From: Escherichia coli
GTDB lineage: Bacteria; Pseudomonadota; Gammaproteobacteria; Enterobacterales; Enterobacteriaceae
Assembly (NCBI RefSeq): GCF_030013205.1
Contig: NZ_CP122648.1
Reading direction: 5' to 3' (one strand)
Length of the DNA: 64,000 nt
Below are positions 29,928 to 36,412 of this stretch, in pieces. The notes below the pieces were generated by a model. The model searched no databases, was not told the DNA's origin, and saw only the letters and a program-made list of their open reading frames with translations. Numbering within the stretch: the stretch's first letter is position 1; each line of letters starts with the position of its first letter. Both the position numbers and the translations under genes were made by a program.

Positions 29928-30020
29928 GGTGAGGTGGCCGAGAGGCTGAAGGCGCTCCCCTGCTAAGGGAGTATGCGGTCAAAAGCTGCATCCGGGGTTC
30001 GAATCCCCGCCTCACCGCCA
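29928..30020 (+). tRNA. serV: tRNA-Ser (anticodon GCU)
   Basis: 93 nt; acceptor stem GGTGAGG/CCTCACC, anticodon loop CUGCUAA, long variable arm, CCA end. Confidence 0.9.
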
Positions 30021-30023
30021 TTT

Positions 30024-30100
30024 GCATCCGTAGCTCAGCTGGATAGAGTACTCGGCTACGAACCGAGCGGTCGGAGGTTCGAATCCTCCCGGATGCACCA
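30024..30100 (+). tRNA. argV: tRNA-Arg (anticodon ACG), copy 1
   Basis: 77 nt; GCATCCG/CGGATGC acceptor stem, anticodon loop CUACGAA, CCA end. Confidence 0.9.
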
Positions 30101-30164
30101 TCTCTTACTTGATACAGCTTTAGTAGCGGTATCAAAAAATCTGCAGTAAAGTAAGTTTCCCGAT

Positions 30165-30241
30165 GCATCCGTAGCTCAGCTGGATAGAGTACTCGGCTAC
30201 GAACCGAGCGGTCGGAGGTTCGAATCCTCCCGGATGCACCA
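30165..30241 (+). tRNA. tRNA-Arg (anticodon ACG), copy 2
   Basis: Identical 77-nt sequence. Confidence 0.9.
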
Positions 30242-30376
30242 TATTCTCCGAAATCTTCAGCAATGAAGATATCGAAGAGGTAGCGGAATTAACCGCAGGC
30301 ACCAGGAAGGATAACGTTGCTTTAGCAACGGCCCGAAGGGCGAGCCGCAAGGCGAGTAATCCTCCCGGATGCACCA
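30242..30376 (+). repeat. ~135-nt spacer repeat ending in a degenerate tRNA-Arg 3' fragment (AATCCTCCCGGATGCACCA)
   Basis: Direct repeat of 30517-30649 with scattered substitutions; terminal 19 nt equal the tRNA-Arg T-arm/acceptor 3' end. Confidence 0.7.
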
Positions 30377-30439
30377 TCTCCTAATTGATATGGCTTTAGT
30401 AGCGGTATCAATATCAGCAGTAAAATAAGTTTTCCCGAT

Positions 30440-30516
30440 GCATCCGTAGCTCAGCTGGATAGAGTACTCGGCTACGAACCGAGCGGTCGGAGGTTCGAAT
30501 CCTCCCGGATGCACCA
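30440..30516 (+). tRNA. tRNA-Arg (anticodon ACG), copy 3
   Basis: Identical 77-nt sequence. Confidence 0.9.
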
Positions 30517-31833: not shown

Positions 31834-33417
<1,584 letters not shown>

Positions 33418-33424
33418 CAGAAAA

Positions 33425-33497
33425 GAAAAAGGCCACTCGTGAGTGGCCAAAATTTCATCTCTGAATTCAGGGATGATGATAACAAATGCGCGTCTTT
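33425..33497 (-). ncRNA. micA: MicA (SraD) Hfq-dependent sRNA
   Basis: Reverse complement reads GAAAGACGCGCATTTGTTATCATCATCCCTGAATTCAGAGATGAAATTTTGGCCACTCACGAGTGGCCTTTTT, matching remembered MicA incl. terminator hairpin. Confidence 0.85.
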
Positions 33498-33566
33498 CAT
33501 ATACTCAGACTCGCATGGGAAGAAAGAGTTCAGAAAATTTTTAAAAAAATTACCGGAGGTGGCTAA

Positions 33567-34082
33567 ATGCCGTTGTTAGATAGCTTCACAGTCGATCATA
33601 CCCGGATGGAAGCGCCTGCAGTTCGGGTGGCGAAAACAATGAACACCCCGCATGGCGACGCAATCACCGTGTTCGATCTGCGCTTCTGCGTGCCGAACAA
33701 AGAAGTGATGCCAGAAAGAGGGATCCATACCCTGGAGCACCTGTTTGCTGGTTTTATGCGTAACCATCTTAACGGTAATGGTGTAGAGATTATCGATATC
33801 TCGCCAATGGGCTGCCGCACCGGTTTTTATATGAGTCTGATTGGTACGCCAGATGAGCAGCGTGTTGCTGATGCCTGGAAAGCGGCAATGGAAGACGTGC
33901 TGAAAGTGCAGGATCAGAATCAGATCCCGGAACTGAACGTCTACCAGTGTGGCACTTACCAGATGCACTCGTTGCAGGAAGCGCAGGATATTGCGCGTAG
34001 CATTCTGGAACGTGACGTGCGCATCAACAGCAACGAAGAACTGGCGCTGCCGAAAGAGAAGTTGCAGGAACTGCACATCTAG
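33567..34082 (+). CDS. luxS: S-ribosylhomocysteine lyase LuxS
   Basis: 171 aa, HTLEH metal-binding motif. Confidence 0.95.
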
Positions 34083-34139
34083 TCAGTAAACTATCTTCAC
34101 AATTAATTGAAAAAAGCCAGTTCAAATGAACTGGCTTAG

Positions 34140-34820
34140 TTGTGCACAGAAAACCCCCAGCTAGGCTGGGGGTTCCGGAAAGCTTTCAGCTTTGAGCCAG
34201 TTATTAAAACCCCTTTTGATTTGTTAAAACACCTTGCGGTCTGGCAACTGCAAGTGTCAAACAAGAAATCAAAAGGGGGTCCCAATGGGGAACGAAAAGA
34301 GCTTAGCGCACACCCGATGGAACTGTAAATATCACATAGTTTTTGCGCCAAAATACCGAAGACAAGTGTTCTACAGAGAGAAGCGTAGAGCAATAGGCAG
34401 TATTTTGAGAAAGCTGTGTGAGTGGAAAAGCGTACGGATTCTGGAAGCTGAATGCTGTGCAGATCATATCCATATGCTTGTGGAGATCCCGCCCAAAATG
34501 AGCGTATCCGGCTTTATGGGATATCTGAAAGGGAAAAGCAGTCTGATGCTTTACGAGCAGTTTGGTGATTTGAAATTCAAATACAGGAACAGAGAGTTCT
34601 GGTGCAGAGGGTACTACGTCGATACGGTGGGTAAGAACACGGCGAAGATACAGGATTACATAAAGCACCAGCTTGAAGAGGATAAAATGGGAGAGCAGTT
34701 ATCGATTCCCTATCCGGGCAGCCCGTTTACGGGCCGTAAGTAACGAAGTTGGATGCAAATGTCAGATCGTGTGCGCCTGTTAGGGCGCGGCTGGTAAGAG
34801 AGCCTTATAGGCGCATTTGA
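34140..34820 (+). mobile_element. IS200-type insertion sequence (IS200/IS605 family); boundaries approximate (+/-30 nt)
   Basis: Left-end hairpin CCCCCAGC-TAG-GCTGGGGG (34154-34172), RBS-occluding region AAAAGGGGGTCCCAATG, single Y1 transposase ORF; ~0.7 kb. Confidence 0.8.
34285..34743 (+). CDS. tnpA: IS200 TnpA (HUH Y1 transposase)
   Basis: 152 aa from MGNEKSLAHTRWNCKYHIVF; HxH motif (HIHML) and catalytic Y region; near-identical to remembered Salmonella IS200 TnpA. Confidence 0.9.
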   Translation: MGNEKSLAHTRWNCKYHIVFAPKYRRQVFYREKRRAIGSILRKLCEWKSVRILEAECCADHIHMLVEIPPKMSVSGFMGYLKGKSSLMLYEQFGDLKFKYRNREFWCRGYYVDTVGKNTAKIQDYIKHQLEEDKMGEQLSIPYPGSPFTGRK

Positions 34821-34827
34821 AAAACCT

Positions 34828-34846
34828 CCGGCTATGCCGGAGGATA
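34828..34846 (-). terminator. Probable emrB rho-independent terminator (CCTCCGGCATAGCCGGAGG followed by TTTTT on minus strand)
   Basis: GC-rich hairpin plus U-tract immediately after emrB stop. Confidence 0.55.
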
Positions 34847-34857
34847 TTTATTTGTAC

Positions 34858-36396
34858 TTAGTGCGCACCACCTCCGCCGCCACCTGCGCCAAATGGCGGT
34901 TTAGCAAACCACACCAGCCCCAGCAAGACGAGGAATATCCCGGCTGACATCCAGAAGATCTCATTGGCGGAAATAATCAGCCCCTGATTGGTGATCTGCT
35001 GGGCAATCCAGCCTGATGCCTGCTGTTGCGTCATTCCCAGTCCTTCCAGTTGACTGTACATCGCCTGGGCATTCGGGTTGAACGGGTTTACCGACTCGGT
35101 TAACTGTGCGTGGTGCATCGACTCGCGGTTGGTCCACATGGTAGTGGTGATGGATGTGCCGATAGACCCCGCCAGCGTACGCGTAAAGTTGGAGAGGCTC
35201 GATGCCGCCGCCAGTCGTTCCGGTGGCAAACCAGACAGCGTAATGGTGGTCAGCGGCATAAAGAAGCAGGCCACTGCGAAGCCCTGGATAAACTGCGGCC
35301 AGGCCGACGCACCAAAATCCATACCAGGTTCAAAGGTATAGGCACGCCAGTAAAAGCAGACGGCATACATAATAAAGCTGAAGGTTACCAGCCGCCGCAT
35401 ATCCAGTTTATGCGCGAAGCGGCCGATAATCGGCGACAGGATCACCGGAATAATCCCTACCGGCGCAGAGGCCAAACCTGCCCACGTTGCCGTGTAACCG
35501 TAGACCTCCTGCAACAACTGCGGCAGCAGAACAATCGCGCCGAAGTAGAGCATATACGCGAGGCTGATACACAAGCAGCCGATGGTGAAGTTGCGCGACT
35601 TAAACAACGACAGATCGACTATCGGGTTATCGTCGGTCAGCTCCCAGACAATCAGGAAGCAGATAGCCACCACTGCCACCACGGTAAGGATGATAATTTC
35701 CTGTGATGAAAACCAGTCCAGCTCTTTACCGCGGTCGAGCATAATCTGCAGGCTACCGATACCAATAACCAGCAGTGCCAGCCCCACGGCATCAATCCGC
35801 CGCCGTTCGGTGCGGGTTTCACGTCCGCGCAGGGTTTGCAGTGTCATCAACACCACCGCCACGCCAATCGGTACGTTGATGAAGAATATCCAGCCCCAGT
35901 GGTAATTGTCACTGATATACCCGCCGAGGATCGGGCCGCAAATTGGCGCGACAATCACCGTCATCGACCATAACGCCAGCGCGATCGAGCGTTTGGCTGG
36001 CGGGTAGTTATTCAGCAATAGACTTTGCGAAAGCGGAATTAACGGCCCGGCGACAATCCCCTGAATCACGCGGAAGAAGATCAGCATATTCAGGCTGCTG
36101 GAGACACCACACGCCCACGACGCAATAGCAAAGGCGATGGTGGACCAGAGGAACAGTTTCACTTCCCCGACGCGCTTTGCCAGCCAGCCGGTAAGCGGGA
36201 TCGAGATGGCATTCGCCACCCCGAAAGAAGTGATTACCCACGTTCCCTGGCTGAGCGATGAGCCCAGATTCCCGGCGATAGTGGGGATCGCCACGTTAGC
36301 AATGGTGGAGTCCAGCACCTGCATGAATGTCGCCAGTGACAGCGCAATCGTCATAATGACCAGTTGCGCGCCTTCCAGCGGTTTTTGCTGTTGCAT
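34858..36396 (-). CDS. emrB: Multidrug efflux MFS permease EmrB
   Basis: 512 aa from MQQQKPLEGAQLVIMTIAL; 14-TMS DHA2 family. Confidence 0.93.
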   Translation of the reverse strand: MQQQKPLEGAQLVIMTIALSLATFMQVLDSTIANVAIPTIAGNLGSSLSQGTWVITSFGVANAISIPLTGWLAKRVGEVKLFLWSTIAFAIASWACGVSSSLNMLIFFRVIQGIVAGPLIPLSQSLLLNNYPPAKRSIALALWSMTVIVAPICGPILGGYISDNYHWGWIFFINVPIGVAVVLMTLQTLRGRETRTERRRIDAVGLALLVIGIGSLQIMLDRGKELDWFSSQEIIILTVVAVVAICFLIVWELTDDNPIVDLSLFKSRNFTIGCLCISLAYMLYFGAIVLLPQLLQEVYGYTATWAGLASAPVGIIPVILSPIIGRFAHKLDMRRLVTFSFIMYAVCFYWRAYTFEPGMDFGASAWPQFIQGFAVACFFMPLTTITLSGLPPERLAAASSLSNFTRTLAGSIGTSITTTMWTNRESMHHAQLTESVNPFNPNAQAMYSQLEGLGMTQQQASGWIAQQITNQGLIISANEIFWMSAGIFLVLLGLVWFAKPPFGAGGGGGGAH

Positions 36397-36412
36397 CACA
36401 CGCACCTCTGGA

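Follow-up and report, generated by a model that had tools for sequence, protein, structure and literature searches.

The window, a 64,000-nucleotide stretch of Escherichia coli DNA, carries the standard E. coli gshA-micA-luxS locus, and there is very little doubt about this assignment: micA lies under a σE-type promoter, has its own terminator and is overlapped by luxS leaders. The hairpin between gshA and micA is a canonical intrinsic terminator for micA only. Its copy on the gshA strand can mark a 3' end, and the formation of 3' ends on that strand is conditional and leaky. Back-to-back promoters of micA and luxS, which had been predicted for the spacer between the two genes, are not supported; the published mapping contradicts them. 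The micA gene, alternatively named SraD, was discovered in 2001 between gshA and luxS. The locus is already known in all essentials, and the discovery value of its description here is small: the σE control of micA, its targets and its antisense relation to the luxS leader have all been published. The features of the region are collected in Table 1.

Table 1. Features of the gshA-micA-luxS region; positions are counted from the first base of the window
Feature	Position	Strand	Description and basis
gshA CDS (glutamate-cysteine ligase)	31861-33417	+	TTG start, TGA stop 33415-33417; ORF list, RefSeq of a 100% identical strain, K-12
luxS P1	33222-33235	+	-10 TATGAT 33222-33227 (placement is our own reading); start G 33235 = -332 from luxS ATG
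gshA-strand 3' end	33386	+	within gshA ORF; K-12 2814914(-); second sheet (LB OD 2.0), 305,886 reads (PMC7815308, files 1 and 3)
gshA-strand 3' end	33439	+	inside hairpin loop; K-12 2814861(-); first sheet (LB OD 0.4), 34,625 reads (PMC7815308)
gshA-strand 3' end	33453	+	5 nt past stem (GGCC-AAAAU); K-12 2814847(-); M63 glucose only, 177,654 reads (PMC7815308)
MicA sRNA	33423-33498	-	5' end G 33498; 3' end 33426 (K-12 annotation, 73 nt) or 33423 (K-12 Term-seq, 76 nt)
MicA U-tract, also 3' tail of the sRNA	33423-33430	-	UUUUUCUU; 7/8 T; Hfq-binding role from literature
Hairpin, MicA terminator stem	33431-33448	both	GGCCACT-N4-AGTGGCC, 7 bp, G+C-rich; terminator scan, folding
MicA internal stem-loop, nt 23-44	33455-33476	-	MFE fold, Rfam structure, consensus fold of 81 sequences
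MicA 5' single-stranded region, nt 1-22	33477-33498	-	unpaired in Rfam consensus; pairing with ompA and other mRNAs from literature
Proximal luxS 5' end 'R3'	33484-33485	+	14-15 nt overlap with MicA; Udekwu 2010, transferred by identity
σE-type micA promoter	33505-33532	-	-35 TGAACTC 33532-33526, 16-nt spacer, -10 TCTGA 33509-33505, 6-nt discriminator, +1 33498
A+T-rich tract upstream of micA -35	33533-33551	-	sequence; opposite strand is part of luxS leader
luxS SD and CDS	33555-33559 (SD); 33567-34082 (CDS)	+	SD GGAGG; ATG at 33567

When the whole window was searched with cmscan, the Rfam family RF00078 (MicA) matched at 33427-33498 on the minus strand with 83.9 bits (E = 1.4e-11; model positions 1-75 of 75), the gathering score of this family being 41. 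The 73-nt micA of K-12 (b4442) had a single match in the window, at 33426-33498 (-), with 0 mismatches (73/73 identical), and in the chance control 0 of 100 shuffles matched. The original prediction, a 73-nt MicA on the minus strand between gshA and luxS, had named the Rfam search as the check that could refute it; MicA was recovered, and the identity to b4442, the gene order and the σE-type promoter agree with this result. The stretch 33418-33566 is exactly the gshA-luxS intergenic region, with gshA convergent and luxS divergent with respect to micA. The distance from the MicA +1 (33498) to the A of the luxS ATG is 69 nt, with 68 nt in between: the predicted 70 nt came close, and only its exact value was off. 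The same is true of the 7 nt predicted between the gshA stop and the end of MicA. Depending on the endpoint, this distance is 8 nt (annotated 3' end, 33426), 5 nt (Term-seq 3' end, 33423) or 13 nt (base of the hairpin, 33431).

In the K-12 MG1655 annotation, micA occupies 2814802-2814874 and is flanked by luxS and gshA. The K-12 gene and the one described here share the same 73 nt, the same neighbours in the same orientations, the σE promoter elements with their spacing, and the terminator. The 301-nt segment 33350-33650 shows a single difference from K-12, at 33515, which is A on the plus strand here and C in K-12; this base is position -17, in the spacer of the micA promoter. The wider segment 33299-34018 is without further differences, and within it the strain differs from the K-12 micA locus by this one promoter-spacer base only. 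A stretch of 401 nt around the locus is 100% identical to the corresponding sequences of porcine ETEC and O139 E. coli strains, and the locus was found at an identity of at least 95% in 5423 of 5426 complete E. coli genomes. In the RefSeq/PGAP annotation of the identical strain K_EC180, no micA is annotated at the locus. This missing label is an annotation gap, not a biological difference, and the present check supplies the annotation for an sRNA that RefSeq/PGAP omits in window-identical strains.

The absence of any ncRNA from the PGAP annotation of this locus in identical strains, together with the substitution within the promoter spacer, might be taken as a sign that the MicA match is a chance resemblance or a non-functional relic in this strain. 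This reading is extremely improbable. All 73 nt match an experimentally characterised gene, the promoter hexamers, their spacing and the terminator are intact, and the locus is conserved in 5423 E. coli genomes and, among the matches listed, in about 115 species. The absent PGAP label is a matter of annotation, and the K-12 record has micA.

The conservation of the locus in other species was examined by scanning a single genome from each species for a 23-nt pattern (nt 5-27) that lies near the 5' end of MicA. At least 120 loci were found, in Escherichia, Citrobacter, Enterobacter, Klebsiella, Pantoea, Erwinia, Serratia, Yersinia, Dickeya, Pectobacterium, Edwardsiella and others. Among the matches listed, the gene order, the promoter register and the hairpin are common to about 115 other Enterobacterales species. 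Likewise among the matches listed, luxS is divergent and starts 67-92 nt upstream of micA in nearly all loci, and 120-180 nt upstream in a few. The gshA gene was present in 112 of the 118 loci examined among these matches; in the remaining six, the sequence examined stops no more than 108 nt past the hairpin. It is convergent, and in 111 of 112 loci (among the matches listed) a distance of 8-27 nt separates its stop from the hairpin; at the shortest of these distances the stop codon overlaps the MicA U-tail. This tabulation may be a small addition to the study of 3'-end formation at convergent sRNA/mRNA pairs.

The MFE fold of MicA (-20.5 kcal/mol, z = -2.98) consists of a single-stranded 5' region, an internal stem-loop and the terminator hairpin. 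Across the 81 distinct sequences among the matches listed, nt 1-22 are nearly invariant; it should be mentioned that nt 5-27 served as the selecting pattern. The consensus fold of the 81 sequences (again among the matches listed) contains compensatory changes at two pairs. The outer six pairs of the terminator hairpin (GGCCAC/GTGGCC) show no variation in these sequences, among the matches listed, and the seventh pair covaries, being AU in 69, UA in 6, CG in 1 and GC in 1 of the 81 distinct sequences among the matches listed.

The 5' end of MicA is described as pairing with ompA and other mRNAs (PMC2956633; review PMC4618604), and MicA itself as an Hfq-bound RNA of about 70 nt that represses ompA, phoP and other targets (PMC2956633, PMC4618604, PMC7815308). 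From the sequence identity to the characterised K-12 gene, we infer the same function in this strain: the product would be a 73-76-nt Hfq-dependent sRNA, the 5' end of which would repress ompA, phoP and other envelope-related mRNAs. RybB and MicL resemble MicA in having a σE promoter, Hfq dependence, a single-stranded 5' seed and an intrinsic terminator, and differ from it in their unrelated sequences and their other loci. All three repress outer-membrane protein or lipoprotein mRNAs. Among these σE sRNAs only MicA is also antisense to the leader of its neighbour, luxS, according to Udekwu 2010 (PMC2956633).

The σE-type motif GAACT-N15-17-TCTGA has one match in the 64-kb window, where 0.2 are expected by chance, and this match is in exact register with the MicA +1. 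The register of the -35 and -10 elements is fixed in 119 species loci among the matches listed. In K-12, the σE dependence of micA and the 16/6 spacing have been shown (Udekwu & Wagner 2007, PMC1851643), and an AT-rich element upstream of the -35 is described in the same paper; in the architecture given there, the -35 is GGAACTT-like and the -10 TCTGA-like. The σE control of micA in the present strain is predicted from the motif match. Transcription of micA would start from this σE (envelope stress) promoter, which ends 6 nt before the first base, and would stop at about 33423, at the intrinsic terminator formed by the 7-bp GGCCAC hairpin and the UUUUUCUU after it.

The promoters of micA and luxS had been thought to stand back-to-back. 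However, the micA elements fill 33505-33532, and the accompanying A+T-rich tract extends to about 33551. Mapped transcription starts had been proposed as a check, and the published luxS 5' ends are located outside the 68-nt spacer: one at 33235, 332 nt from the luxS ATG, and the other at 33484/5, inside micA. The distal promoter P1 is σS-dependent; 5'-RACE and reporter fusions located it in K-12 (Udekwu 2010, PMC2956633). Its site within the gshA CDS is part of a segment (33172-33257) identical to K-12. The 70 bp proximal to luxS had no promoter activity (Udekwu 2010, PMC2956633). The proximal 5' end R3 is TAP-enhanced, yet dependent on RNase III and MicA (PMC2956633). Since the luxS 5' ends are inside micA or gshA, the transcription units overlap and the luxS leaders are antisense to MicA. 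Within the 68-nt spacer, where the micA promoter takes up the space, the luxS gene would lack a promoter, and its leaders would be processed in a manner dependent on MicA and RNase III. The lesson is that divergent genes 68 nt apart need not have back-to-back promoters.

In PMC2956633, MicA is portrayed as a regulator in cis (of luxS) as well as in trans (of ompA and phoP), and the 2015 MicA review gives the same locus architecture (PMC4618604). Overexpression of MicA had no effect on the level of the LuxS protein (Udekwu 2010, PMC2956633), which leaves it doubtful how much the cis-antisense relation matters physiologically.

A σ70-like site is present on the luxS strand (ATGATA-18-TATACT, 33476-33505), one being found against 1.1 expected, and it overlaps micA. 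Its predicted start, at about 33512, matches no published luxS 5' end, and the site was not accepted as a luxS promoter. The inactive 70-bp fusion of Udekwu 2010 lacked the -35 of this site, which is therefore not strictly excluded by that experiment. The TERMITe supplements, in which luxS starts and gshA 3' ends were sought, had no entries for these genes.

The hairpin (GGCCACTCACGAGTGGCC, found on the minus strand at 33448-33431) had been predicted to act as a bidirectional terminator shared by gshA and micA. It is situated between convergent units, is stable and G+C-rich, and can fold on both strands, with an identical stability of -11.0 kcal/mol on each. A bidirectional intrinsic terminator has a U-tract on both strands, whereas here the two tails are quite different. 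On the micA strand, 7 of the 8 positions after the stem are T (TTTTTCTT / UUUUUCUUUUCUGUC) and the tail scores 4.98; for the gshA strand (AAAAUUUC / AAAATTTC / AAAAUUUCAUCUCUG), the corresponding values are 3 of 8 and 0.37. The terminator scan called this hairpin on the minus strand only, with no call on the gshA strand (+). The same asymmetry was observed in 116 of 116 species loci among the matches listed, the 8 nt after the stem containing 6-7 T on the micA strand versus 0-4 on the gshA strand. Because the gshA-strand copy of the hairpin is without a U-tract, it is not a classical terminator.

The 3' ends observed in K-12 were taken from the Term-seq data of Adams et al. 2021 (PMC7815308, supplementary file 1), and the coordinates were transferred by sequence identity. 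In the sequences given there, each 61 nt long, the 3' end was verified to be nt 51. Growth conditions were assigned by the sheet order in the caption: the first sheet is headed LB 0.4, the second was taken as LB OD 2.0 and the third as M63. The evidence on 3' ends thus comes from one Term-seq study, and that on 5' ends from one paper and its citation of De Lay & Gottesman. In all three conditions, MicA ends at 33423 (K-12 2814877(+)), 8 nt past the stem (PMC7815308). Some 370 nt past the MicA terminator there is a Rho-termination region on the strand antisense to gshA (PMC7815308), a hint of some read-through in the micA direction.

On the gshA strand there are three ends, 33453, 33439 and 33386, which depend on the growth condition and do not fit one simple model. 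The end at 33453 is labelled as the 'primary' gshA 3' end in M63 (PMC7815308), and in these M63 data MicA and the gshA-strand RNA have an overlap of 31 nt (33423-33453) that spans the hairpin. The strong end at 33386 is 31 nt before the gshA stop and 181 nt upstream of the luxS ATG. Between it and the 3' end of MicA there are 37 bp; as a speculation, such a distance could fit head-on polymerases.

Several of these features would suit a symmetric bidirectional terminator shared by gshA and micA, combined with back-to-back promoters for micA and luxS in the 68 nt between them: the equal stability of the hairpin on the two strands, its position 13 nt after the gshA stop, the 'primary' gshA 3' end mapped in M63 at 5 nt beyond the stem, and an A-tract ahead of the hairpin on the gshA strand, a trait of many bidirectional terminators. 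This arrangement is nevertheless highly unlikely. The gshA strand has AAAAUUUC in place of a U-tract, an asymmetry common to all the loci compared among the matches listed. In LB, the gshA-strand ends are found in the hairpin loop or inside the ORF. The luxS P1 transcripts, which start at -332 and exceed 800 nt, run through the hairpin in the gshA direction (Udekwu 2010, PMC2956633). The inactivity of the proximal 70 bp and the mapped luxS 5' ends speak against the promoter half of the arrangement. The predicted shared terminator is partly supported: the fold on both strands and the gshA-strand end just past the stem in M63 agree with it, and the one-sided U-tract, the LB ends and the passage of luxS P1 transcripts do not. 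A hairpin between convergent genes is, in short, not automatically a bidirectional terminator. A literature search combining bidirectional terminators and micA returned nothing on this locus, as judged by title and abstract.

The gshA-strand ends at the hairpin might not be termination sites at all. Transcription of gshA could end downstream or diffusely, by collision with polymerases from the micA promoter, by Rho or by read-through into luxS, and the hairpin or a MicA duplex could block 3'-to-5' exonucleases or direct RNase III. We regard this as quite possible, falling just short of probable. All three condition-dependent ends (33453, 33439 and 33386) would then arise in this way. The gshA strand is without a U-tract, and its end in the hairpin loop (33439) cannot arise from hairpin-driven termination. 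The ends shift with growth phase, as do MicA and σE activity, and sense-strand processing dependent on RNase III and MicA has been documented at the locus (PMC2956633). In addition, for convergent genes of E. coli it has been suggested that collision drives termination at hairpins unlike intrinsic terminators (bioRxiv 10.1101/2022.10.23.513370). On the other hand, according to Udekwu 2010 (PMC2956633), nothing points to a polycistronic gshA-luxS message. Returning to the hairpin as a terminator for micA only, with a conditional and leaky end on the other strand, the end at 33453 may come from weak termination, from polymerase pausing or collision with convergent polymerases, or from exonuclease trimming to the hairpin.

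A more elaborate proposal is that the hairpin on the gshA strand is not a passive terminator but a condition-dependent control point, at which convergent, σE-driven micA transcription, or MicA pairing followed by RNase III cleavage, sets the three 3' ends and the passage of luxS P1 transcripts. This is very unlikely. If it were true, glutathione synthesis and AI-2 production would be tied to envelope stress through the control point. The invariance of the GGCCAC/GTGGCC stem in the 81 sequences among the matches listed is compatible with such a control point without showing it, and so is the position of the gshA stop within 8-27 nt of the hairpin in 111 of 112 species among the matches listed.

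A 152-nt RNA inside gshA, extending from the P1 start (33235) to the end at 33386, was also considered; in its MFE fold, the 5' end pairs with 33371-33381. It was rejected as a conserved structure: its overall z score is only -1.6, and in 55 other species the helix loses 1-6 of its 11 pairs with no compensating changes. For the local fold around 33386, z is -0.28.

Overlapping bidirectional terminators between convergent genes were reportedly described by Ju, Li and Liu in 2019. The gshA/micA pair resembles them in having one hairpin between convergent units, one side of which is unlike an intrinsic terminator, and in the overlap of its two RNAs in the K-12 M63 data. It differs from them in that one partner is a short sRNA, strongly terminated with a canonical U-tract, and in that the ends on the gshA side vary with growth condition and luxS P1 transcription reads through. 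A mirror of this case is found in the same window, in the luxS/emrB hairpin (34114-34137), which has a T-tract on the emrB strand (-) only; the luxS-strand 3' end in the K-12 Term-seq data is 4 nt after its stem (PMC7815308). Unlike gshA/micA, both of its partners are protein-coding. In this strain, a copy of IS200C lies 6 nt beyond the luxS/emrB hairpin, on the emrB side.

In the MicA terminator stem, none of the six outer pairs (GGCCAC/GTGGCC) changes in any of the 81 distinct sequences, which come from the window and the homologous enterobacterial micA loci L003-L122, span many genera and were picked by the MicA 5' region only. This invariance exceeds what a generic terminator stem needs. 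Hfq binding, MicA self-association or the gshA strand may impose the constraint behind this excess conservation.

Two features mapped in K-12 (Adams et al. 2021, PMC7815308) fall within gshA. A Rho-termination region at K-12 2815245(+) in supplementary file 2 corresponds to window position ~33055 on the minus strand; that is, it is antisense to gshA and lies about 370 nt past the MicA terminator. This location suggests that Rho stops transcripts that to some extent run past the MicA terminator, or else an independent antisense transcript. Furthermore, a very abundant 3' end of gshA-strand RNA is located at 33386 (+) in the second Term-seq sheet, which is taken as LB OD 2.0: 305,886 reads fall on it there, while the MicA end has 50,179 (PMC7815308). 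It precedes the gshA stop by 31 nt, and the MicA 3' end is 37 bp away. No hairpin adjoining 33386 that would account for it was found.

The hairpin downstream of luxS is a mirror image of the micA/gshA hairpin, with its T-tract on the emrB (-) strand only. In K-12, a strong luxS-strand 3' end is found 4 nt after the stem (GGCUUAGUU), at 2814159/60(-), about window 34141. It is present in all three Term-seq conditions, although the T-tract is on the opposite strand (PMC7815308).

In addition, a copy of IS200C has inserted 6 nt beyond this hairpin. It is recognised by an Rfam STnc490 hit at 146 bits and by the RefSeq annotation of an identical strain, which reads 'IS200/IS605-like element IS200C family transposase'. 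The copy stands between emrB and the hairpin with its T-tract; in K-12, which is without the insertion, these follow emrB. The insertion junction occurs in 123 of the 5426 complete E. coli genomes. The five highest-ranking hits for the junction all come from swine, and each of these isolates matches the query at 19-33 places.

Window coordinates of the features described in the text
Feature	Position	Strand	Remark
tRNA cluster	29928-30516		serV and tRNA-Arg(ACG) genes
tRNA-Arg(ACG) genes	30024, 30165, 30440
MicA terminator stem	33431-33448
luxS/emrB terminator hairpin	34114-34137
IS200C	34144-34847
STnc490	34152-34275		Rfam, 146 bits
tnpA	about 34285-34743		within IS200C
emrB	34858-36405	-

The tRNA cluster holds only three tRNA-Arg(ACG) genes, whereas that of K-12 has four (argV, argY, argZ and argQ): one 275-nt repeat unit is absent relative to K-12. 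This absence is probably ordinary copy-number variation caused by recombination between tandem copies.
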